From: Escherichia coli
GTDB lineage: Bacteria > Pseudomonadota > Gammaproteobacteria > Enterobacterales > Enterobacteriaceae
Assembly (NCBI RefSeq): GCF_003019035.1
Contig: NZ_CP027447.1
DNA length: 64,000 nucleotides
Reading direction: 5' to 3' (one strand)
Shown: in pieces, positions 1 to 19,052 of the stretch
Layout of the letters: every line of letters starts with the position of its first letter
How positions within the stretch are numbered: position 1 is the stretch's first letter
Notes under the pieces: generated by a model
Seen by the model: the letters and a program-made list of their open reading frames with translations, nothing else
The model's database searches: none
What the model was told of the DNA's origin: nothing
Position numbers and translations under genes: made by a program

Positions 1-636
1 TCTGTTAGCCTCAATCTCTACGTCTGTTTCTGTGTCAATGTCTAAATCATCGAGGATTGGCGTATCTAATTTATCATAGTGCAGAGCAATGTGGGATAAT
101 TCATGCATTAATGTAAACCAAAAGTAATCATATCTCGAATATCTTAAACTTAGACCTATGACTGGTGTTTTATTTGGTAAACAAAAGGTACAGCCATCTA
201 ACTTCATACCTTTGAATGATTTTTCAATTATTAGAATAATACCATATTCTTCTTTAAGGATTCTTGAAATATAATGAATAGATTGTACATCCCTGCTCAA
301 ACTTGCAATTATTCCGAGGTTTTCAAAATCCAGATCTGTGAAGACCTTTGTATTTCCTTTTAAATAGGTGTTTAATGACTTTTTTTCTATTAATGATAAC
401 CATAAATTTATGAGTTCAGAATTAGCATCATCTCTTTTTCTAAATAGTTTATTTTTGTTAAATGTTAAATTTTTTGCTACATCAAGTAGGAATTGATTTT
501 CGTTTTCCATTTCTGGTTTACGGGAAATAATATCTTTTATTTTTTTGCTGTTTTTTATCTTTTGGAAATTTAGTAAAATTTCCAAATCAGACTCACTAAA
601 CTGATTTGATACAAAGAAATCTTTCTCATGCGGCAT
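1..636 (-). CDS. ImmA/IrrE-like HEXXH zinc metallopeptidase domain protein, partial (3' end runs off the window)
   Basis: Absent from the ORF track because it is truncated. Manual minus-strand translation from ATG 636..634 gives about 210 codons with no stop, including ...IGLSLRYSRYDYFWFTLMHELSHIALHYDKLDTPILDD... (HELSH at about 105..91). The start overlaps the stop of the upstream ORF by 11 nt. Confidence 0.5.
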   Translation of the reverse strand, partial: MPHEKDFFVSNQFSESDLEILLNFQKIKNSKKIKDIISRKPEMENENQFLLDVAKNLTFNKNKLFRKRDDANSELINLWLSLIEKKSLNTYLKGNTKVFTDLDFENLGIIASLSRDVQSIHYISRILKEEYGIILIIEKSFKGMKLDGCTFCLPNKTPVIGLSLRYSRYDYFWFTLMHELSHIALHYDKLDTPILDDLDIDTETDVEIEANR

Positions 637-1273
637 TTGAAATTCCTCCGAGAGTTGATGCGACAACCTGTGATGCCTCATAAAATCGGAGATTTTCTTT
701 TTCATGGTCGACGCCAAAATCAGTCATGCCAAGATGGTTATAGAAACCCTCTGCACTTGGGAGTGCATGTAGGCAAAAACCAGGTCTATACCCCCAGTTT
801 GAACAGGCATAATTAATTGTATGTTGGATAAGCTCTTTGCCTACTCCACTATATTTAGGGGTAAAGTTAGGACGAGGACGATTCCAGTATGCTGTTGCAA
901 TATAATCCACGTAGAAAATTTTATTATTATCAAATCGACTTTCTTTTGGATGGTAAAGAACACAAACACCTTGAACTGCGTCGTTTATTTGCAGAAAAAA
1001 CCACTGATAATCATCACCATTACATTGCAAAAGCTTGCGGCACCAGTCCCAATGCCAATCAGAAAGGCTGTTATCTGCCAGAATTTTCCTTGCTAACTCG
1101 TTATCAGTGGCCATACCGGGGTTAGCAGTAATTAGAGCTGACAATAAATCAGCACGATAGGCACCCCATTTGCTCTGCAAGTCAACCACTTTAGCATAGT
1201 CAATCCCTACGTGAATTTGGTAATCAACTGATTTTCCTGAACAATTTTCAACGACCATAAGCTCCCTTTCCAT
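626..1273 (-). CDS. GNAT-family acetyltransferase-like protein (215 aa)
   Basis: ORF track. The segment ...KYSGVGKELIQHTINYACS...GFCLHALPSAEGFYNHLGM resembles GNAT motifs A/B (R/K-x-x-G-x-G, then A..FY...G). Its stop overlaps the start of the downstream peptidase-like ORF. Confidence 0.45.
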   Translation of the reverse strand: MERELMVVENCSGKSVDYQIHVGIDYAKVVDLQSKWGAYRADLLSALITANPGMATDNELARKILADNSLSDWHWDWCRKLLQCNGDDYQWFFLQINDAVQGVCVLYHPKESRFDNNKIFYVDYIATAYWNRPRPNFTPKYSGVGKELIQHTINYACSNWGYRPGFCLHALPSAEGFYNHLGMTDFGVDHEKENLRFYEASQVVASTLGGISNAA

Positions 1274-1505
1274 TGTGTCGGCTCATTTTGACTAATAATA
1301 CAACTTTATAGTCTTTAAGAATGCTCTGCTGGTCAAATTTCTTATTTGATCTATAGAAGGCTATGTTTTGAAGCTGGTTGTTAATCTGGTTATGATGTGG
1401 TCATATTAGAATTGGTAAATCAAACCAATTTTGTTGGTATGAATGATGGTATCTTCGCTAATGTAATATGCTTTATTCACTAAAAATCATAAGGATAGTT
1501 GCGAT

Positions 1506-1528
1506 GTTCGAGTCCGGCATCCGCACCA
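1506..1528 (+). other. tRNA 3'-end-like fragment (T-loop GTTCGAGTCC ... ACCA), not a complete tRNA
   Basis: GTTCGAGTCCGGCATCCGCACCA resembles the T-arm/acceptor 3' end of a tRNA (similar to the 3' end of tRNA-Leu leuX as I recall it). The upstream sequence does not form a cloverleaf. A small hairpin plus T-tract follows at about 1546..1568. Confidence 0.3.
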
Positions 1529-2203
1529 CACTGTATGCAAATCGAGTCGCTCAAGAGCGGCTTTTTTTGTGTCTGAAATCACCCATATCCGTGCAGTATA
1601 TAGGCCTGCCAGAAAAGCAATTCAGTATTCTTCATTTTGTAGTCGATGGTCCCAAGTTTGCTCTGGCTGGAAGCTGCATCGTCCACATTACGTGGGCAGG
1701 GTGGTTTCGCTATGCTACTTGAACGTTTTGACCATGTGGCTCAGGTAGCATATCAAAAGACGTCATTTTGTCTCCACGCCCACCTTGGTGAACATTCAAT
1801 AAATAGTTTCGGTCGAGAGCAGTTATGTAGGGCTAGCAGACGAAATGCGCAGACATCTTGTTGAAGACAATTTTACTGACCACCTGAGAACGCTATTCTA
1901 CCGAATAATATTTATTATCTTGGTGAATAATGATGATTACCTGTGTAACTATGGTTTTATGCTGATGGGACCGGCAGTACAATTTCTGTAGTGTACTCGC
2001 AATTTCAGGTCTCTGGCGTTTATTCTGGTGCAAAGGATGTATGTGATGAAAACTTTGCTACCATGCCATTAAATGCGACCAATATCGGATTATCCATCAG
2101 TTGCTTGTTGTAGATTTCATTGGTTATAAAAATGCAAGGTGTAAAAGATGAAATTTATAATTATTAGTTAAGTGGCTAGTTTTATAGTAATTTAGACAAT
2201 AGG

Positions 2204-4252
2204 ATGTATGGAAAAATGGAAAAAGTTTATGATACCACTAGAATTAGTAATCTTGCTAACGACCCGAAACAGTTTTGTTCTTTTTTTTGTGAGTACATAA
2301 AAAGAGATGATATTAGTATAGATATCGCCTTGGATGTGCTGAGAATATCTTCCATCTATTATAATAGATTTTCAGTTCAGACTGAAGTTGAGTATAACAA
2401 TACATTCAAAAAATGTATTAATGAGCTAGTAAACTCATTTCCTGATAACATTGAACTAATCTCTGAGTTCGAGAGTCAATGTAAAATTATGCATGATATA
2501 AATAATTCTTTCTTTGCGGCTACAAAATGTGCTGGTATTTGGCGTAAAAATACAAAAAAATCACATGCATTAATACTTAATCTCATCATGTTTTGTGAGA
2601 TGTTTTTATCATTATTATCATCCTTGGTTGTGGTCAATGATCCTAAAAAAATGAAGAGGATTTTTCCATTGTTTATCGTTTCTGAAAATATTAATATTCA
2701 TGCTGAACCTGATATCGAATATTTTCGAGTTATCGATAGGGCATTTGATGAGGTAGCCAATTACACCGGAAGAATATTTTCTTATTTACGGACTCATGGG
2801 CCATTGAAACTAACTTCTTGTGTGAATAAACAAACCTTGCTTTCAATGGGAGGGTACCTTAATGAGTGGAATGTTTTTGACTCATTAAGCAGAGTAAGAG
2901 ACTTTTTCAGACTAAGTAGTGCAGTATTTACAAAATTGGATAATAACATTTACTCTCTTGAGGTTGATAGTTTTTGTTTATACCGAGATTATGAGATTGC
3001 AAGAAATAGACTAATGATGAGAGCGTCACATCTATATAGCGAAGTTCATGAATTTAGTAACAAACATTTTCATCTAAATAGTTGGGTAAAGGATCATATG
3101 CCATCTTACTTAAATTCTGATGGCGTTTTTAGCTCATTTCATCTAAGCGAGTTGGAAAATATGTCTCCTGATGACCTTCATGAAGAATATGGGAATATAT
3201 CATTATTTAATTGGGTGCACGCTTATCAATGTTTAGTCGAGTTATCTAAAGAAGAAATGAGCAAAAGATTTTCATCGACAAAACCTATACCCCTACAGTT
3301 GGATCGCTGGCTGATCATAAAAAGCCGTGAGAGTTGGTTATCATTCTTTCAACGTAAGGGGATTGCAGTAGATGCAGCAAAAAAACTGATAGATTATTTT
3401 ACCTTCAATTCAAAATCACATGATCTTAATGATTGCCCATTTATTCCCTGTATGGACGGTTTATGCTTAATGCCTGCATTAATAGCAAATAGCTCAGTGA
3501 CTCGCTCTCTAATGTCATTATTTGGTTCCAAAAAAATTTCTCAAGCAAGTAAAGGGCGATTTCATGAGCAACAATTTATAAAACAAGTTCGTGATGCGGG
3601 GATTAAAGCTTCTCCAATTGATGCTCATGCTAATTATCAGTGCGATTGCGTGATTCTCCTGGATGATTGTTTGATTTTTACAGAACTAAAATCAAATGGT
3701 CAACCAATATATTATGGTAAGTACTATCAGCAAGTGTGTAACATCGTTGGAGATAGCTCATTAATACATGATCATAATAATAAATTTATGCGTTCTTATT
3801 TTCAACAAATAAATCGAATTTCTGAACATTATCTTAATCATCTTAATGTGATCATTAAAGAATTCGAACTACCATCAACATGGCAACCCAAAGGTGTGTA
3901 TAAGCTTATTGTTACTACAACTATGCTCGGTGGGAAATATCATGTGGATGATACATATGTAGCGGACAAATATGCATTATCTAGTTTTTTTCAACGAATA
4001 CCTGGAGTGATATATCAAACAAATGAAAATGGAAAAATGGCGAAAAATATCATTGATGGGTTTGAGTGTTGCGAAGGGGAAATCACTATCGATAAGTTTA
4101 TAGATTATCTTTCCTCTTTGCCCAGTATTAATGCTGTACGTAAAAATATAAAAAAATTAACTTATAGTGTTCGATTTAATGAAAAATTAGTCCATCACCC
4201 TTATTATGATTCTTGGGCTTTTGGCCCATATATTCGTAAGGGAAATGATTAG
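2204..4252 (+). CDS. Hypothetical protein, 682 aa, very AT-rich; possible PD-(D/E)XK-type nuclease motif in the C-terminal third
   Basis: Long uninterrupted ORF in the track. N/K/I/F/Y-rich composition, no recognisable Walker motif. The segment ...CDCVILLDDCLIFTELK... fits a hhhD...ExK nuclease-like pattern. A hairpin plus T-tract follows immediately downstream. Confidence 0.6.
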   Translation: MYGKMEKVYDTTRISNLANDPKQFCSFFCEYIKRDDISIDIALDVLRISSIYYNRFSVQTEVEYNNTFKKCINELVNSFPDNIELISEFESQCKIMHDINNSFFAATKCAGIWRKNTKKSHALILNLIMFCEMFLSLLSSLVVVNDPKKMKRIFPLFIVSENINIHAEPDIEYFRVIDRAFDEVANYTGRIFSYLRTHGPLKLTSCVNKQTLLSMGGYLNEWNVFDSLSRVRDFFRLSSAVFTKLDNNIYSLEVDSFCLYRDYEIARNRLMMRASHLYSEVHEFSNKHFHLNSWVKDHMPSYLNSDGVFSSFHLSELENMSPDDLHEEYGNISLFNWVHAYQCLVELSKEEMSKRFSSTKPIPLQLDRWLIIKSRESWLSFFQRKGIAVDAAKKLIDYFTFNSKSHDLNDCPFIPCMDGLCLMPALIANSSVTRSLMSLFGSKKISQASKGRFHEQQFIKQVRDAGIKASPIDAHANYQCDCVILLDDCLIFTELKSNGQPIYYGKYYQQVCNIVGDSSLIHDHNNKFMRSYFQQINRISEHYLNHLNVIIKEFELPSTWQPKGVYKLIVTTTMLGGKYHVDDTYVADKYALSSFFQRIPGVIYQTNENGKMAKNIIDGFECCEGEITIDKFIDYLSSLPSINAVRKNIKKLTYSVRFNEKLVHHPYYDSWAFGPYIRKGND

Positions 4253-4274
4253 AGCAATTTATTATATAGTCCAT

Positions 4275-4331
4275 GTTATTCACTGATTATATTATTGATA
4301 ATATAATCAGTGAATAACTCTAATTTTTTTA
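4275..4331 (+). terminator. Putative intrinsic terminator after the 682-aa ORF
   Basis: 44-nt near-perfect inverted repeat (gttattcactgattatattatt / gataatataatcagtgaataac) followed by T-tract ttttttt at 4325..4331. Confidence 0.45.
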
Positions 4332-4640
4332 ATGTTGGGGTTTAGCCTGAAGTTGAAATTGGTACTACGGAACGGTATGATCATATCGCATCAAAATATC
4401 AAGGTAGTGATGATTTTCTACGCACCGATCCAGAAATGTGGATTTTATCATCACCATAAGCAATGGCAGCGACAACACCATCAATTTCTATATCAAAGGT
4501 GGTAAAATAAATTAGAAAATTGTTTATTTAATCCATTAGCGATAAGTTTTATTGTTATTTAGCCGAGATATATTCCATTGAAAAAAGTAAATTGGCACTG
4601 ATATTATATCAAATGGGAATAATCCTTTTGTAAATAAGCT

Positions 4641-4830
4641 GAGGAATGTGTTAATTCACATCCAGCGCCTTATAAACCGCATCAACCGGTTCTGAGTAAA
4701 AACTTACCTGAAACTTGGTAAACAACTCTGCCGGAACTGTTGGAATATCCATAGCCGAGGATATCGGCAACAGAACTCGTTTTGCGCCGCTATCGAAGGC
4801 GAGTTGTAAACTAGCGGCAAGATCCTGCAC
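4641..4830 (-). pseudogene. Lon-protease-like C-terminal fragment (gene remnant)
   Basis: Minus-strand translation (V)QDLAASLQLAFDSGAKRVLLPISSAMDIPTVPAELFTKFQVSFYSEPVDAVYKALDVN* resembles the extreme C-terminus of Lon/S16 peptidase domains (compare E. coli Lon ...AAHRGGIKTVLIPFENKRDLEEIPDNVIADLDIHPV...EEVLTLAL). Only about 60 codons, with an in-frame stop immediately upstream. Confidence 0.35.
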
Positions 4831-4874
4831 TGATTATGTCAGCAATATTGAACATACTGCGATAGTTATCAACC

Positions 4875-5804
4875 TCACCCCCTAAAAACCTCTTTCCGAT
4901 GCCACTCCACAAATCCCTCATAAGGGTAATTTTTACGTACCTGCGGCAACGCAATAGTTTTCCCGTCAAAATCCCAGAATAGTTTCTCAACGATCCCTCC
5001 GCCGTTTACCGCATCTGATACCAGTACCCGCATATTTTCATCCAGGCCAATCGATCCTTTATCAAAGGCTTTATGGTGTATTGCACAAAGCGCCAGACCA
5101 TTAGGAATTTCACAAGGACCGCCGTGCTGTTTCCATTTTATATGCGCCGCTTCCAGCGCGACGGTGGTGTCGTCGTGGCGCATATTAAAGCCACATATCG
5201 CGCACTGGTAGTTATAAGCGCGTAATACATTTTTGCGAAATAACGGGTCGCGCTGTTTACGGATTTGCTGGAGATCAAAACCCAGTTCGTCAGCAATTTC
5301 TTCCTGAATACTCTCGGTGAAGTGCGCTTCGAGTATCTGTTGCGCCAGAGTATTGATGAGTTTTTTATTGCCAGTTACCAGGGCGTAGTGCTGTTCATCG
5401 AAACCGCCTGCAACGTGGTATTCAGTCAGTTCCTTCACTGGTGGTTGTCGGCTGCTCCCTGCTGTTGAGCAAAGCCCGGCATTGTGTAATTGCCAGAATC
5501 CGTCGCCTTGTAATCGCCAGAACGGCATATCAGGTCGGTACTGTGAACGCTGTGGCCCAAAACGTTCCAGTAAATTGTGCAGAGGTTCGTAGATTTCCGA
5601 TCCATAATCGAAAAGGCGCGGATGCCCATTCAGGTATCCCGCTAATACGTATAGCAGTAACAATGGTTTATGCGGCGCGCGCTGTTCACCCTTGTGCCAG
5701 ATTTTTATATTGGCAATTGCCTGCTGTAGCGATTTACTGGAAGCCATTGATATCCCTGGCAGTGAAATAATTGCGATCATGCTCGCAAATTTTCTGCTGT
5801 TCAA
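4875..5804 (-). CDS. HNH endonuclease domain protein with uncharacterised N-terminal domain (McrA-like architecture)
   Basis: ORF track. C-terminal ...YQCAICGFNMRHDDTTVALEAAHIKWKQHGGPCEIPNGLALCAIHHKAFD... is an HNH signature (C-x2-C ... H ... N ... C-x2-H). The true start may be the internal Met near 5747. Confidence 0.6.
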   Translation of the reverse strand: MNSRKFASMIAIISLPGISMASSKSLQQAIANIKIWHKGEQRAPHKPLLLLYVLAGYLNGHPRLFDYGSEIYEPLHNLLERFGPQRSQYRPDMPFWRLQGDGFWQLHNAGLCSTAGSSRQPPVKELTEYHVAGGFDEQHYALVTGNKKLINTLAQQILEAHFTESIQEEIADELGFDLQQIRKQRDPLFRKNVLRAYNYQCAICGFNMRHDDTTVALEAAHIKWKQHGGPCEIPNGLALCAIHHKAFDKGSIGLDENMRVLVSDAVNGGGIVEKLFWDFDGKTIALPQVRKNYPYEGFVEWHRKEVFRG

Positions 5805-5958
5805 GCCTGCAAGTGAAGATATATTACCTTGATCTCATTTGTTTTTTTGCTGCCTGTGTACCCTAATTGCCATGCGATGTTGCACCGACGCAAACCACCG
5901 TTTACGCCGGAGGAGTTAAAAGCGCTGATGGATGCAAATAAATCAAATTAATGAACGC

Positions 5959-6939
5959 TCACCTTTCGCGCCAAAACCGCAAAATTGCTTCTACAAACCT
6001 GTCAGAAATAATCCCCCGACGGGCTGCCGCGCTGAAATGACTGCTTCGCAGTGCCGTCGTCCAGTTCTCCGGTGACCGGTACGCTGAACCGTAATATCCC
6101 GTGCTTAAATCGTCCGGGTCTTCAACAGGCGCGTTCGTCAGTCCTCTTTCACCTTGTTGCTGGAAGTCGACGAAAATAATATTGGCTAAAACATTATTTT
6201 GATAATTGCCATAAATAGCTTCATACGCATGAGGGAAATTTTCTTTCCAGTACCAGGTGGTATCGCCGCAAAACCACGGCGCGTCAGTAATATTATTAAG
6301 CTGAGAATGGTATTGTTTTAGATCCCTACGAAAGGCTTCAACCATATGATTAAAGTGTTGAGGGTGTGACGCGTAGTCACTGGTCATTAAGTCAAATTCG
6401 CCTTGCATCCAGCATACGCCGAGGAATTTGTTCTGCGGATTTTTTGCCAGTGCGGCTCGCGTTCTGCTGACTAAATCCTGGTATAGCGGAGTATCCGTTC
6501 CCCAACGACAAGCATCATGGCTGGCTCCGTGCCGTTCTGAATATGTCCCTTCGCTGCCCGCGGTAAAAGCCGATCCGCCACGGCAACACGGAACGATGAG
6601 AACCCCTGCATTATCAGGAATGAAGGGCAGTAATTTCCGTGCAATATGCAGTGCCTGGCCAACGGTGCCGTACTGTGTTTGATGATTCGTTGCCAGAGGA
6701 TGGTGATAACCCTGCATATCCTGAACATCGTGTGGGCAGTGAGTCAGTGGAATAATGTCGTTAAAGTGACATGACGGGCCTCCGGGATGCGTATGCGCAA
6801 ATCTCGCTAATTGTTTAATTCTGGGATGAGGCGCATCTTCCCCGTCCGGTAATGGCAGTCCTTCGCCATACGCCATGGCATTAGACTGACCAGCAACGGT
6901 AAGAACATAGTAATAATCGGGCGATATTATCGCGTTCAT
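5959..6939 (-). CDS. nanS: Sialate O-acetylesterase NanS (YjhS)
   Basis: 326-aa ORF matching E. coli NanS in length and remembered sequence; synteny nanS-nanM-nanC. Confidence 0.85.
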   Translation of the reverse strand: MNAIISPDYYYVLTVAGQSNAMAYGEGLPLPDGEDAPHPRIKQLARFAHTHPGGPSCHFNDIIPLTHCPHDVQDMQGYHHPLATNHQTQYGTVGQALHIARKLLPFIPDNAGVLIVPCCRGGSAFTAGSEGTYSERHGASHDACRWGTDTPLYQDLVSRTRAALAKNPQNKFLGVCWMQGEFDLMTSDYASHPQHFNHMVEAFRRDLKQYHSQLNNITDAPWFCGDTTWYWKENFPHAYEAIYGNYQNNVLANIIFVDFQQQGERGLTNAPVEDPDDLSTGYYGSAYRSPENWTTALRSSHFSAAARRGIISDRFVEAILRFWRER

Positions 6940-7003
6940 ATAATTTTCGCGTAATTGAAATGATAAATTGATAGCAGGGCCCCTTTACCGGGGCCCTGAA
7001 GCG

Positions 7004-8110
7004 TTAGTTTTGTACTGTGACTTTATTATCCTTCACAGAAATTAAAACTGAATCCGTCACCGCTTTGCCGCCTGCAGTTTCACCGCCAATAATTAATAAA
7101 CTATTATTCCAGGGCAATGATACTCCGTAGGCCCGACCTTGCGATAATTCACCCGATTTATCCCATTTCCCGTTATGCCAAAGATGAATATCAGTGCTAT
7201 ATGATTTTTTCAGGCCTTCATGCGCATAGTTCTTACCGTTCTGGTAATTTTCTCGTGAACCTTTGAATCCGGCCCCCCCGGCAAATATAAGAGAATCATT
7301 GCTTATCCCCGCAAAACCGCCAGCGACGCCATCTGGTGATGAGACGGGAGCAAGCTTATTCCATTTTAAATTATTACCGGTGAAATCAAGTTCAAATACG
7401 GCATCCGTTCGCAATCCTGGTTTGGCTTCGCCATTAATAAGCCAGGTTTTATCACCTTTATTCACAACCGCCGCACCAGCCGTTCCGTACCAGGGAGATT
7501 CGCCAGCGTAACTCCATTGCTGTGTTGAGGGATCAAAAGACAACAGAAACTTATTGAAGAAATAATCTTCTGCTTTTTTGTCAAAATAGTGGGCGTTGAT
7601 TTTATCTATAGCGGTTGAATCTTTTCCAGCCTCGTTGAGATCTTCAAAATAGCCATTGAAGATATTCTGGTTAACACCGCCAGTAACATAAGCCTTGCCG
7701 TTGTGTACAAAAGTCACATGACCCGCCATGCCCATCGGCGCGTGCGACATCAATTTAACCCAGCTATTGGTTTTGGGGTTGTATTTGTGTACGTCATTAA
7801 ATACCTGAGTCAAGCCCTCGCTGTTTTTGCCAATGCCGCCAAACACATACAGATTGCCATCAATAAATGCCGAGGTTGCTTGATCTCTTGGTCCGCCAGG
7901 GAATGCAGCTAACGCTGTCCATTTTTTATCTTTGGCCTGTGTATCCAGCTTGTACCATGCCGTACCTGCGCTACCTAAACCAATGTAGACAGTGTCGTTA
8001 TCAATTGCTCCGGTACCACTTTTAAATGCCACAGGAGTTTCCGGTAATACAGACGCGTTTGCGGCAAATGAAGCCATCATGATAGCAAGCGCCGTTATTG
8101 TTTTATTCAT
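7004..8110 (-). CDS. nanM: N-acetylneuraminate mutarotase NanM (YjhT)
   Basis: ORF track 7004..8218; start trimmed to the internal Met MNKTITALAIMM... (signal peptide), giving 368 aa as in K-12. Confidence 0.85.
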   Translation of the reverse strand: MNKTITALAIMMASFAANASVLPETPVAFKSGTGAIDNDTVYIGLGSAGTAWYKLDTQAKDKKWTALAAFPGGPRDQATSAFIDGNLYVFGGIGKNSEGLTQVFNDVHKYNPKTNSWVKLMSHAPMGMAGHVTFVHNGKAYVTGGVNQNIFNGYFEDLNEAGKDSTAIDKINAHYFDKKAEDYFFNKFLLSFDPSTQQWSYAGESPWYGTAGAAVVNKGDKTWLINGEAKPGLRTDAVFELDFTGNNLKWNKLAPVSSPDGVAGGFAGISNDSLIFAGGAGFKGSRENYQNGKNYAHEGLKKSYSTDIHLWHNGKWDKSGELSQGRAYGVSLPWNNSLLIIGGETAGGKAVTDSVLISVKDNKVTVQN

Positions 8111-8129
8111 TGTGACTGTCTCCTGTCTA

Positions 8130-8855
8130 CTACAGTTTAAATGACACACCAATGCGATAACTGTTTTCCGATAAATTATCTCTGCCGTTGTAAACACCCT
8201 GACGGTCCAGGTAGTCATATTCTATGTATGGCGTAATATCGGGCGTCATATGGTATTGTAGAACAAATGCATTTTCCGTCGCCCATTTCTTGTGGTTTGC
8301 ATAGCGATAATCGTTCTGTTTGCTGTATAGCGTCGTTTGCCATGCGAAGGTGAAATCACTATTAATATGGTAAGTGACATATCCATCCCAACGATGAACG
8401 TTATCACGAGACATATCACCGGATAAGTCTTGTTGTCGGTAAGCTTTCCAGTCGTAACGATAGCGAATGCCAAAATTAAGATCTTTTGTCGCGTCCCAGG
8501 ACAGTTTTACGTAGGGTCCGTAGCGTGTGCCGTTGCTGCTAAAATGCGTTAACATTCCCGGGCGCACCGTCCATTGATCATCAAGTTTAATCGCGTAATT
8601 AACTTCAACCTGAACATCATTGAGTGCGGCATTTTCCTTTTTATTATCATGAATGGTATTCCAGGTATTACTTTCCATGCTTGCCCACCATCCATTTTGC
8701 CATCCCTCACTGACTTTGAGTCGAGTCTCATAGGCGTGGCTTCCACTACGATATCCACCACGTACGTCCAGTGTCGCAGCCTGAGAAATTAATGGTGACG
8801 AAAAGCACAGTAATAATACGCCAGAAAGTATTTTAGCCTTTTTCATAAATTTCAC
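8130..8855 (-). CDS. nanC: N-acetylneuraminic acid outer-membrane channel NanC (YjhA)
   Basis: ORF track; signal peptide, beta-barrel-like alternating pattern, C-terminal F-K-L. The true start may be 9 nt downstream (MKKAKILSG...). Confidence 0.8.
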   Translation of the reverse strand: MKFMKKAKILSGVLLLCFSSPLISQAATLDVRGGYRSGSHAYETRLKVSEGWQNGWWASMESNTWNTIHDNKKENAALNDVQVEVNYAIKLDDQWTVRPGMLTHFSSNGTRYGPYVKLSWDATKDLNFGIRYRYDWKAYRQQDLSGDMSRDNVHRWDGYVTYHINSDFTFAWQTTLYSKQNDYRYANHKKWATENAFVLQYHMTPDITPYIEYDYLDRQGVYNGRDNLSENSYRIGVSFKL

Positions 8856-9267
8856 TCATTTGTAGGATACAGAAAGCAATACAAAGCCCGCATAAACAAT
8901 TAGCATTTATGTTGTGTAATATTTTTTTGCCAGGCTTATAGTGTCTTTGGCAACGGGTAACTGTATTTTATATTTTTTGTATAAGGTCTCCTGTGAAAAT
9001 TCTCTTTTCACATTATTTAAATAAACAGAGATCCAGATTAAATACCTGAGTATAAAATCTCTTCTGATGTTTAATTGATTTGAATGTTCGTAAGCTATAT
9101 CACTTACTCAATCCATTTTACCCAGAGTCATAAAATAGAGTGTCTGTTGATCTCATTTTCATATTCCTTTCAGACTGAAGTGCATTTTCATCACCCGATG
9201 TGAAAGAACTGAAGTGATGTTTGCCATAGATTACGAGATGCCCAGTCTCATTGACTATCGTGGTGCA

Positions 9268-9290
9268 CCTTTATACCTGTTATACCAGAT
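9268..9290 (-). promoter_or_regulatory. NanR-operator-like GGTATA repeats in the nanC-fimB intergenic region
   Basis: Minus-strand reading atctGGTATAacaGGTATAaag (plus-strand TATACC repeats at 9272..9286) matches the NanR GGTATA-repeat operator type known for nan promoters. Confidence 0.45.
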
Positions 9291-10299
9291 CAAAAATCAC
9301 GCAATCCATACAACAAAACCAGATTTGCAATTCGTGTCACAAAATATGTCGATCTTTTTCTAAGAGGCAGATGCCATGTGAAGCCAGACGAACACTTGCA
9401 GTGGTCTTCAAAAACTAAAAATTTTCTTTTAAATATATGTTTTATAAATAATTTATTTAGAATCTAAACAAAGAAAGCTTTGCAAGCTAACTCAGTGAGC
9501 TTGGTGAAAATAAGTGTTTACCCGCCATCAGGCTGAGCATAATTCTCACCATGAAATATGTTTCTTGGTTTGTGGCTTGTAACTGGTCACTCCTGATGTC
9601 GATCTGGAGAGGCTTGTTGATGTTGGTGTTTTCAGGATGATGTTTCACTTAGTTTGTTTGCCGTATCGTCCGGCGAATAGCTGTGATTGAGGAAGGTTTA
9701 AGTCGTAGTGACCAAAGCCATATTTACCAACGGATGTAGATGAAAAAGCGTCGCCTGCGTTCCCCCATATCTCCAGGATAAAAAGGAATGTAACAATCTC
9801 GTGGCGTAAGCTGATGAACCAGGCAGGAATAATCGCTAGGGACCTAAGAATTAGCATGATAATAGCCACTAAGAAATAACTGCGTTCCATGAAATAGCCA
9901 TTTTGTGGCAAATGCAGTTGACTAATAATGTCATATGTGAGACGGCTAGTTGAACGAATATTAAATTTTGCTGAATTTTTTATGTTGATTTTACTTGTTA
10001 CAGAACATATCACATGATATATAGATAAGATTAGTTGCATTAATGATGAGGGTTATTATTAGATTCGTATCCGATTGATAAATATATAAAGGTACATAGC
10101 ATGCAAGAGCATGGCGTTTGTATGGCAACGTTATTATAATTAACTGTTGCTACTCTATTTAAGTTCACTCAGAAGAACTGGTCCACTTACGTTAGTTATT
10201 AAGCAAACGTTCGCTTTTATAAACATAATCAGGATTAAAATGTTGGATTATTGCTAACCCAGCACAGCTAGTGCGCGTCTGTAATTATAAGGGAAAACG

Positions 10300-10902
10300 A
10301 TGAAGAATAAGGCTGATAACAAAAAAAGGAACTTCCTGACCCATAGTGAAATCGAATCACTCCTTAAAGCAGCAAATACCGGGCCTCATGCAGCACGTAA
10401 TTATTGTCTGACTTTGCTTTGTTTTATTCATGGTTTCCGGGCGAGTGAAATTTGTCGATTGAGGATTTCGGATATTGATCTTAAGGCAAAGTGTATATAT
10501 ATCCATCGATTAAAAAAAGGCTTTTCAACAACGCACCCGCTATTGAACAAAGAAGTTCAGGCTTTAAAAAACTGGTTGAGTATCCGTACTTCTTATCCGC
10601 ATGCTGAGAGCGAGTGGGTATTTTTATCACGTAAGGGGAATCCGCTTTCTCGGCAACAGTTTTACCATATTATCTCGACTTCTGGTGGTAATGCCGGGTT
10701 GTCACTGGAGATTCATCCGCACATGTTACGCCATTCGTGTGGTTTTGCTTTGGCGAATATGGGAATAGATACGCGACTTATCCAGGATTATCTTGGGCAT
10801 CGCAATATTCGTCATACTGTCTGGTATACCGCCAGCAATGCAGGGCGTTTTTACGGCATCTGGGATAGAGCCAGAGGGAGACAGCGTCACGCTGTTTTAT
10901 AG
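10300..10902 (+). CDS. fimB: Type 1 fimbriae recombinase FimB
   Basis: 200-aa tyrosine-recombinase ORF (…HPHMLRHSCGFALANMGIDTRLIQDYLGHRNIRHTVWYT…); position upstream of fimE. Confidence 0.9.
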   Translation: MKNKADNKKRNFLTHSEIESLLKAANTGPHAARNYCLTLLCFIHGFRASEICRLRISDIDLKAKCIYIHRLKKGFSTTHPLLNKEVQALKNWLSIRTSYPHAESEWVFLSRKGNPLSRQQFYHIISTSGGNAGLSLEIHPHMLRHSCGFALANMGIDTRLIQDYLGHRNIRHTVWYTASNAGRFYGIWDRARGRQRHAVL

Positions 10903-11379
10903 AGATAGTTGAGATACCATGGATGGTGTTAAAAACTACATTATTCTTACGATATATCAAAAATGATTAACCATTTATTAATTGATGTTATTGTAAGTGT
11001 GATTCTTAATTATCATAATAAACATTAAGTTAACCATATCCATACAAAATACAATGGTTTATGTTCTTCAAAATAAATAAACAAAATCATTCATAAATTT
11101 ACACATCACTTAAATCCTCCTGTTTCCACACTTTTTTCTTTATTTTTTAAGCAACTGGAAGTTAATCTTCTGCAATCTATTGTTATATTGAATCAAATCA
11201 ATGAAAATAGATGTTGTCACATCGGTGATATTTTATTTTTGTATGATATTTAATGTAATTGACTGATAGCCACATCACTTCGTGTGTGGTTATCTTTTTA
11301 TCTATTGGGCTAATTTTGACCGATTGAGGTTTCCTATAGGTATTCATTCAAATATATCTCAGTCAGGAGTACTACTATT

Positions 11380-11976
11380 GTGAGTAAACGTCGTTATCTT
11401 ACCGGTAAAGAAGTTCAGGCCATGATGCAGGCGGTTTGTTACGGGGCAACGGGAGCCAGAGATTATTGTCTTATTCTGTTGGCATATCGGCATGGGATGC
11501 GTATTAGTGAACTGCTTGATCTGCATTATCAGGATCTTGACCTTAATGAAGGTCGAATAAATATTCGCCGACTGAAGAACGGATTTTCTACCGTTCACCC
11601 GTTACGTTATGATGAGCGTGAAGCCGTGGAACGCTGGACCCAGGAACGTGCTAACTGGAAAGGCGCTGACCGGACCGACGCTATATTTATTTCTCGCCGT
11701 GGGAGTCGGCTTTCTCGCCAGCAGGCCTATCGCATTATTCGCGATGCCGGTATTGAAGCTGGAACCGTAACGCAGACTCATCCTCATATGTTAAGGCATG
11801 CTTGCGGTTATGAACTGGCAGAGCGTGGTGCAGATACCCGTTTAATTCAGGATTATCTCGGGCATCGAAATATTCGCCATACTGTGCGTTATACCGCCAG
11901 TAATGCTGCTCGTTTTGCCGGATTATGGGAAAGAAATAATCTCATAAACGAAAAATTAAAAAGAGAAGAGGTTTGA
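11380..11976 (+). CDS. fimE: Type 1 fimbriae recombinase FimE
   Basis: 198-aa tyrosine recombinase paralogous to FimB; synteny. Confidence 0.9.
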   Translation: MSKRRYLTGKEVQAMMQAVCYGATGARDYCLILLAYRHGMRISELLDLHYQDLDLNEGRINIRRLKNGFSTVHPLRYDEREAVERWTQERANWKGADRTDAIFISRRGSRLSRQQAYRIIRDAGIEAGTVTQTHPHMLRHACGYELAERGADTRLIQDYLGHRNIRHTVRYTASNAARFAGLWERNNLINEKLKREEV

Positions 11977-12023
11977 TTTAACTTATTGATAATAAAGTTA
12001 AAAAACAAATAAATACAAGACAA

Positions 12024-18149: not shown

Positions 18150-19052
18150 ATGAAACGAGTTATTACCCTGTTTGCTGTACTGCTGATGGGCTGGTCGGTA
18201 AATGCCTGGTCATTCGCCTGTAAAACCGCCAATGGTACCGCAATCCCTATTGGCGGTGGCAGCGCCAATGTTTATGTAAACCTTGCGCCTGCCGTGAATG
18301 TGGGGCAAAACCTGGTCGTAGATCTTTCGACGCAAATCTTTTGCCATAACGATTACCCGGAAACCATTACAGACTATGTCACACTGCAACGAGGTTCGGC
18401 TTATGGCGGCGTGTTATCTAATTTTTCCGGGACCGTAAAATATAGTGGCAGTAGCTATCCATTTCCGACCACCAGTGAAACGCCGCGCGTTGTTTATAAT
18501 TCGAGAACGGATAAGCCGTGGCCGGTGGCGCTTTATTTGACGCCGGTGAGCAGTGCGGGGGGAGTGGCGATTAAAGCTGGCTCATTAATTGCCGTGCTTA
18601 TTTTGCGACAGACCAACAACTATAACAGCGATGATTTCCAGTTTGTGTGGAATATTTACGCCAATAATGATGTGGTGGTGCCCACTGGCGGCTGTGATGT
18701 TTCTGCTCGTGATGTCACCGTTACTCTGCCGGACTACCCTGGTTCAGTGCCGATTCCTCTTACCGTTTATTGTGCGAAAAGCCAAAACCTGGGGTATTAC
18801 CTATCCGGCACAACCGCAGATGCGGGCAACTCGATTTTCACCAATACCGCGTCGTTTTCACCCGCGCAGGGCGTCGGCGTACAGTTGACGCGCAACGGTA
18901 CGATTATTCCAGCGAATAACACGGTATCGTTAGGAGCAGTAGGGACTTCGGCGGTAAGTCTGGGATTAACGGCAAATTACGCACGTACAGGAGGGCAGGT
19001 GACTGCAGGGAATGTGCAATCGATTATTGGCGTGACTTTTGTTTATCAATAA
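18150..19052 (+). CDS. fimH: Mannose-binding adhesin FimH
   Basis: ORF track 18141..19052, trimmed to MKRVITLFAVLLMGWSVNAWSFACKTANGTAIPIGGGSANVYVNLAP... Confidence 0.9.
   Translation: MKRVITLFAVLLMGWSVNAWSFACKTANGTAIPIGGGSANVYVNLAPAVNVGQNLVVDLSTQIFCHNDYPETITDYVTLQRGSAYGGVLSNFSGTVKYSGSSYPFPTTSETPRVVYNSRTDKPWPVALYLTPVSSAGGVAIKAGSLIAVLILRQTNNYNSDDFQFVWNIYANNDVVVPTGGCDVSARDVTVTLPDYPGSVPIPLTVYCAKSQNLGYYLSGTTADAGNSIFTNTASFSPAQGVGVQLTRNGTIIPANNTVSLGAVGTSAVSLGLTANYARTGGQVTAGNVQSIIGVTFVYQ

Follow-up and report, generated by a model that had tools for sequence, protein, structure and literature searches.

A displaced leuX 3′ end marks the probable distal attachment site of an integrative mobilizable element in an Escherichia coli chromosome

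The tRNA gene leuX is a major hotspot for genomic islands in E. coli (PMC7545054) and is also a hypervariable site in Salmonella (PMC4042001). In one of its occupants, PAI II536, an 18-bp repeat at either end serves as attL and attR (PMC9686529). A P4-like integrase inserts this island only at leuX, and its re-insertion into the deletion mutant 536-21 restores a complete tRNA gene; integrase-dependent excision and integration at leuX have been experimentally demonstrated for PAI II536 only (PMC3202238). A regenerated tRNA gene together with a displaced fragment marks the ends of such islands, which is the basis of Islander (PMC4383910).

We analyzed a 64,000-nt stretch of an E. coli chromosome (referred to here as the window), in which a 23-mer, GTTCGAGTCCGGCATCCGCACCA, occurs a single time, at exactly positions 1506 to 1528 of the plus strand. 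This segment comprises a T-loop, the 3′ half of a T-stem, the 3′ strand of an acceptor stem, and CCA. When aligned with the 24 nt at the 3′ end of leuX, the only tRNA-Leu(CAA) gene in E. coli, it shows 21 matches, 2 substitutions, and a 1-nt deletion; base by base, the leuX 3′ end reads GTTCGAGTCCGGCCTTCGGCACCA and its counterpart in the window reads GTTCGAGTCCGGCATCCG-CACCA. With up to 3 mismatches permitted, no second copy of the fragment was found within the window and none of 100 dinucleotide shuffles produced a chance match. The original prediction, which had recognized a T-loop and an acceptor 3′ end here and supposed that an intact tRNA gene shares them, is borne out by leuX. It had also stated that the 5′ side cannot form a cloverleaf, and indeed ARAGORN returned 0 tRNA genes across the whole 64-kb window, Rfam reported nothing at gathering thresholds and no tRNA match at an E value of ≤10 within positions 1250 to 2250, and what precedes 1506 belongs to the island instead of the leuX body. 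What lies at 1506 to 1528 is not a functional tRNA gene with a full cloverleaf and anticodon arm; its homology to leuX begins abruptly at the T-loop, as in P4 attP. We interpret this diverged leuX 3′-end copy, with a probability of about 0.93, as an attR core, i.e., the distal attachment site of a genomic island in leuX. The feature belongs to a type already known and is real but ordinary, a textbook case at a textbook locus.

Copies of the fragment in related elements match leuX at 23 of 24 positions, compared to 21 of 24 for the copy in the window. The additional differences are two substitutions, at 1519 and 1521, that are lineage specific and absent from all other compared copies (core allele GGCATCCG in the window and GGCCTTCG as the common allele). 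The exact allele of the window, including a T at position 1532 of the flank, was found in two independent assemblies, one from a metagenome (L012) and one under accession GCA_012647285.1 (L014), indicating that the substitutions represent a real lineage allele and not sequencing errors. As a result of these two substitutions, the core may no longer be competent for recombination.

On the right-hand side of the fragment, alignment with strains in which the site is empty supports the junction that the original prediction had placed here. In ExPEC XM, whose site is unoccupied, an intact tRNA-Leu(CAA) gene leuX ends exactly where the fragment ends in the window, and it is directly followed by the sequence found in the window from 1529 onward and then by a 682-aa open reading frame (ORF), a phosphorothioate-dependent endonuclease gene, nanS, and nanM. 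Strain 13P477T has the same unoccupied arrangement, with an intact leuX abutting an identical flank. The hairpin with a T-run that had been noted after the fragment was recovered by a terminator scan, which found an 8-bp stem with a 4-nt loop at 1544 to 1563 followed by seven T's (1564 to 1570), and folding gave −15.7 kcal/mol (z = −2.97). Because ExPEC XM and 13P477T have this sequence immediately behind an intact leuX, the hairpin and T-run are the native leuX terminator, which is separated from its gene and located outside the island; the whole trailer with its orphaned intrinsic terminator spans 1529 to 1580 on the plus strand. An Rfam match to AaHKsRNA82 over the terminator was rejected as a mere match to a hairpin and U-run (20.6 bits versus a gathering score of 51.4, E = 2.8). 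A sigma-70-like site at 1368 to 1396 (plus strand) might in principle start a short transcript that would end at the orphan terminator, but promoter-like matches numbered 2 compared to 3.4 expected from shuffles, and we dropped a small-RNA reading.

The chromosomal flank downstream of leuX continues from 1581 to 2203, is collinear with the empty-site strain ExPEC XM, and is without a convincing gene. Primer M805c, which was designated as flanking leuX in work on PAI II536 (PMC3202238), anneals within it at 1776 to 1796 (minus strand) with 1 mismatch. The GC-richer patch between AT-rich sides, described in the original prediction, is found at 1501 to 1900 (44 to 50% GC) because this is native leuX flank, as opposed to 24 to 35% over most of the island end (∼43% at 601 to 900) and 28 to 38% in 2100 to 4600. 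Further downstream, the window is E. coli chromosome, with nanS, nanM, and nanC at 5959 to 8855, fimB at 10300, and fimE at 11380. The gene order downstream of leuX is the same as in K-12, and identity to SMS-3-5-like strains is ∼99.2% over 50 kb.

To the left of 1506 lies the end of an island. Its last gene, at 626 to 1273 on the minus strand, encodes a GNAT acetyltransferase (Pfam Acetyltransf_10, 3.7e-05, just above the cut-off); the GNAT annotation is present in 4 of 4 complete genomes carrying the gene, and the exact protein occurs in 175 collection blocks. The window start cuts the adjacent gene, of which the N-terminal part is visible at 1 to 636 (minus strand) and which encodes an ImmA/IrrE (M78) peptidase resembling component B of PD-lambda-2 (Pfam Peptidase_M78, 1.7e-10; PADLOC PD-Lambda-2_B, 2.4e-47). 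Between the GNAT gene and the fragment, the noncoding segment at 1274 to 1505 (plus strand) corresponds to the island-derived arm of attR (P arm) and is conserved among element copies. Positions 1400 to 1518 are identical in every fetched copy of the element regardless of its right-hand neighbor, bar one base in two loci (L015 and L016), and the last ∼75 nt of the arm are common to a different leuX island in FDAARGOS_144, with ∼22 nt common to PAI II536-type islands. The arm also contains, at 1432 to 1452 (plus strand), two tandem repeats with a 12-nt spacing, TGTTGGTAT and TGATGGTAT, which are candidate arm-type sites for integrase binding. The same motif pair is located between leuX and int in JNEC-KY179 (L004, positions 10314 and 10326) and in XJW9B277 (L005, positions 2004 and 2016), with a further copy inside int, and PAI II536 and the FDAARGOS_144 island each carry the motif at their right end, against a background of ∼0.45 per kb. 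The occurrence of TGATGGTAT pairs on both arms, at P4-like positions, suggests that they are arm-type Int sites. The right boundary of the island is defined by an element that extends up to about 1505 to 1518 and a chromosome that resumes at 1529, and the segment from 1274 to 1528 appears to constitute a complete attR, more than a 23-nt relic.

Of 5,426 complete E. coli genomes, only 4 contain the island end at 1 to 1505 of the window, with 98.2 to 99.8% identity; it is 99.8% identical to JNEC-KY179, and its visible ORFs are intact. In JNEC-KY179, the genes run from ahr and an intact leuX through those for a tyrosine integrase, DUF6387, an HTH protein (AlpA family), Rep, a relaxase, sce7726, a beta-family protein, ImmA/IrrE, and GNAT to the repeat. 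An exact 18-nt repeat, GTTCGAGTCCGGCCTTCG, is present at both ends of the element, 11,339 bp apart in this strain and 19,649 bp apart in XJW9B277, which carries a 19.6-kb relative with the same ends and an intact leuX followed by the integrase gene. The island is probably an ∼11.3-kb integrative mobilizable element. Its integrase, as seen in the relatives' copy, contains the Pfam domains Arm-DNA-bind_3, Phage_int_M, and Phage_integrase and shares 57% identity with phage P4 Int along its entire length, i.e., it is a tyrosine integrase with an N-terminal arm-binding domain and homology to P4 Int, as in the P4 family. An identical integrase sequence occurs in 2,155 public collection blocks. In 9 of 10 further loci, tRNA-Leu(CAA) ends 189 nt before the integrase gene, the tenth (L021) having another island between the two, and attL is intact in all compared copies. 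This additional island in L021 (2413 to 11248) carries a DUF6538-type integrase and lies in a tandem array between leuX and the element; the leuX copy displaced by that island is undamaged and starts at an identical base (GTTCGAG...), although the integrase families are unrelated.

When the exact GNAT protein of the window was looked up, two assemblies emerged, L012 and L014, which share the layout of the window from fimB to GNAT and additionally carry the element gene set up to the integrase gene, the fetched loci ending inside int. The exact junction of the window is absent from the 5,426 complete E. coli genomes (best match, 96.5%), and PLSDB gave no match for an excised or plasmid form of the element from which attP could be read. 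Since both identical-junction assemblies have the element genes all the way from the distal cargo to int, the most likely reading is a complete resident element with the fragment as its attR, rather than a leftover scar. For the source genome, in which the window start lies 1,505 nt inside the island, the intact leuX and integrase gene upstream are deduced from relatives, and completeness from L012 and L014, whose fetched loci end before leuX. The checks suggested with the original prediction all turned out in its favor, and the partial direct repeat that it proposed, generated by a tRNA-targeting island at the junction between segments, is also supported by DNA on the left that is the distal end of an island starting, in relatives, at an intact leuX and a P4-type integrase gene. 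It had further described the fragment as a possible integration scar (att remnant); the attachment site is retained, but a mere scar is improbable.

Comparison with PAI II536 shows that its published 18-bp direct repeat occupies the same site as the fragment in the window. Its right junction aligns with the window as ...CATGTTCGAGTCCGGCCTTCG--ACCA followed by the same flank, and the two share the integration site, downstream flank, terminator, and M805c primer site. They also share the repeat block GTTCGAGTCCGGCCTTCG with a lesion just after it, an arm-repeat pair to the left, and, as judged from relatives of the element, a leuX-specific P4-like integrase. However, the lesion is a 2-nt deletion in strain 536 as opposed to a 1-nt deletion and 2 substitutions in the window, the left arm differs except for ∼22 nt beside the core and the arm repeats, and PAI II536 is an ∼102-kb virulence island whereas the element is ∼11 kb and mobilizable, with defense-type cargo. 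Islander-type islands likewise have a same-orientation 3′ tDNA fragment, an integrase gene beside the tRNA gene, and tandem arrays at one tDNA, without any substantive difference from the element.

The resemblance to P4 concerns the integration machinery. The annotated attP core of P4, GAGTCCGGCCTTCGGCACCA, agrees with the window in 17 of 20 positions, and GATGTT precedes the core in both, whereas leuX has GCCGGTT at this place. P4 carries tandem 12-nt arm repeats ∼77 nt to the left of the core, with another pair immediately upstream of int and a single copy within int; the layout in the element is similar, with tandem repeats ∼77 to 79 nt to the left of the core, a second pair ahead of int, and a further copy inside it, although the repeat sequence itself differs (TGATGGTAT in the element versus the GGGGGCA type in P4). 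Homologues of P4 cII and beta are also present in the element. In contrast, its Pfam gene lists are without P4 alpha primase, sid, psu, delta, or cos and instead contain a plasmid-type Rep (PF03090), a relaxase, AlpA, and DUF6387. Because they show Rep and a relaxase and no such P4 genes, we classify the element as a mobilizable island and not as a P4-like satellite.

The KpLE2/intB element of K-12 occupies the same integration site. Its int-proximal arm (AAAGTATGTAAATAGACC...) follows the distal repeat of the element in JNEC-KY179 and STEC17-183, in which the two islands lie in tandem. In K-12, no distal copy of the leuX 3′ end was detected for KpLE2, and its integrase gene is a pseudogene, whereas the window has the distal copy and not the proximal end. 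The int-proximal arm of KpLE2/intB-type islands contains its own, diverged version of the native leuX trailer and terminator, in which the stem differs and the T-run and the TGAAATC after it are the same (1491 to 1545 of L006 in K-12 and 21529 to 21580 of L004, versus 1529 to 1580 of the window). Judging from this sequence, a KpLE2-type island seems to bring its own terminator, which would replace the native one behind the regenerated tRNA gene. Matches across the trailer and terminator region were obtained in about 2,749 genomes, with many of the sampled matches at ∼89% identity.

The visible part of the island is just 1.5 kb, and the core has extra substitutions relative to all other copies. 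Such features would also be expected from a relic, in which the island was lost or underwent a major deletion that stranded the GNAT and peptidase genes without an upstream integrase gene or a functional element. Degraded islands without a distal repeat do occur at leuX, for instance, KpLE2 of K-12 and the second island of JNEC-KY179, for which a search for a distal repeat found none. However, both assemblies with the identical allele, L012 and L014, hold the element gene set from GNAT to the integrase gene, and the 1,505 nt visible here, with intact ORFs, are 99.8% identical to complete copies. We therefore consider a relic improbable. Even further from the data is a decayed tRNA pseudogene that arose by in-place duplication of leuX, unrelated to site-specific integration: the fragment is tRNA derived and nonfunctional, but the sequence on its left is not leuX-like and is instead a conserved mobile-element arm found in at least five different right-hand contexts, the homology to leuX starts as sharply at the T-loop as it does in P4 attP, and in relatives an integrase-bearing element spans both leuX copies, which makes this origin very hard to sustain.

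We can also dismiss, as having next to no chance of being correct, the idea that a small protein-coding gene begins with the fragment, because although an ATG at 1504 opens a 72-codon frame that gene callers annotate in public assemblies, its 72-aa product has no Pfam family on record and no NCBIfam match, the frame would cross the terminator hairpin and T-run, its first codons exist only through the joining of element DNA to the flank at the att site, and in empty-site strains the same flank is preceded by a tRNA instead. The ORF in question spans 1504 to 1722 on the plus strand (84 codons when read from 1468), is called as a gene in L012 and L014, and appears as a hypothetical protein in some RefSeq genomes. 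An ORF across the junction is probably a gene-caller artifact.

With the fragment read as an attR core, the junction could have formed as follows. A P4-family tyrosine integrase would have recombined the attP site of the element with the 3′ end of leuX, and element sequence would have rebuilt a complete leuX at the proximal attL, upstream of the window, as is seen in relatives. The second, nonfunctional copy of the tRNA 3′ end would thereby have been left at the distal junction, where it is observed fused between the element arm, with its arm-type repeats, to the left and the original trailer and terminator of leuX to the right. Since the distal copy is dispensable for tRNA function, it would have been free to decay, giving the 1-nt deletion and, in the lineage of the window, two further substitutions. 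If the core were still usable, Int and an AlpA/Vis-like factor would recombine attL with attR and excise the element.

The position of the crossover within the repeat was considered from the alleles found at the distal end of the element. The left arm and GTTCGAGTCCGGC are invariant across element copies, and the sequence that follows varies by context. It reads ATCCG-CACCA at the native flank (window, L012, and L014) and CTTCG-CACCA next to a KpLE2-type arm (L003 and L004), in XJW9B277, and in L015 and L016; L011 and L013 have CTTCGAACCC. If the crossover took place inside the 18-nt block, the right part would be the displaced host fragment. This placement fits the PAI II536 experiments, implies an attP of the form ...CCTTCGGCACCA with an attB of ...CCTTCG-CACCA, and requires that the same 1-nt deletion recur or pre-exist in several targets. 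The predicted empty site with the 1-nt deletion had no 100% match in the 5,426 genomes, and the best match was the intact allele, at 99.4%. Alternatively, the 1-nt deletion (CTTCG-CACCA) could be borne by the element, with strand exchange in the last ∼6 nt, GCACCA, and an attP of ...CCTTCG-CACCA recombining with an intact attB. This second placement is based on the same deletion following the element arm in four different right-hand contexts and on the absence of a deletion-bearing empty leuX in the 5,426 genomes. While it explains the recurrence of the deletion, it fits the data from strain 536 badly, and we regard it as a rather unlikely possibility. If it were true, the long-cited 18-bp direct repeat would not mark the crossover and would instead mimic the T-arm as a binding site for the integrase.

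The cargo at the distal end forms an operon encoding GNAT, the M78 peptidase, and a P4 beta-like protein, adjoining a P4 cII-like (sce7726) gene (1 to 1273 of the window on the minus strand, continuing at 18161 to 21258 of L004). PD-lambda-2 is described as having three components, namely, a HigB-like A, an Xre-peptidase B, and a P4 beta-like C (PMC9519451). PADLOC assigned components B (2.4e-47) and C (1.8e-47), the match to B covering the peptidase part only (positions 175 to 396 of the 402 in the profile) and being without the N-terminal part, which by the published description holds the Xre domain. The position of the HigB-like component A is held by GNAT, which has no PADLOC match. Based on these profile matches, the cargo operon may be a variant of the PD-lambda-2 abortive-infection system.

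An AT-rich accessory block is present at 2204 to 5804, between the leuX flank and nanS. It includes the 682-aa ORF, which has no Pfam or NCBIfam family, a 59-aa gene fragment (4651 to 4830), and a gene for a phosphorothioated-DNA-binding HNH restriction endonuclease (NF045808, 2e-131). Only 236 of the 5,426 genomes cover at least 80% of positions 1 to 12000 of the window. In SMS-3-5, which among complete genomes is most closely related to the rest of the window, the leuX-nanS content is wholly different (4905000 to 4942000 of L010, corresponding to about 1 to 5900 of the window) and includes Wadjet JetD, a type II Zorya system, and several helicase and methylase genes of 5 to 6 kb. The leuX-nanS interval is a fast-turnover defense hotspot. 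As in K-12, nanS (5959 to 6939, minus strand) is a full-length 326-aa ORF in the window; the annotations of ExPEC XM, FDAARGOS_144, SMS-3-5, and JNEC-KY179 describe it as a truncated pseudogene. A second variable region extends from 39001 to 64000, where at least 80% of the 25-kb stretch is covered in only 20 of the 5,426 genomes and most genomes match at 90 to 95%; its genes include those for the inverse autotransporter iatD and a pentapeptide-repeat protein as well as dhaR, gcl, nhaC, and others.

Our results leave the current understanding of tRNA-targeted integration unchanged, and their main value is in annotation, since they provide the right boundary of a leuX island at base-level resolution and explain an orphan terminator by the displaced leuX flank. 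For E. coli, they depict a small, widespread mobilizable element with P4-type integration machinery that carries a PD-lambda-2-like module into the leuX-nanS hotspot.
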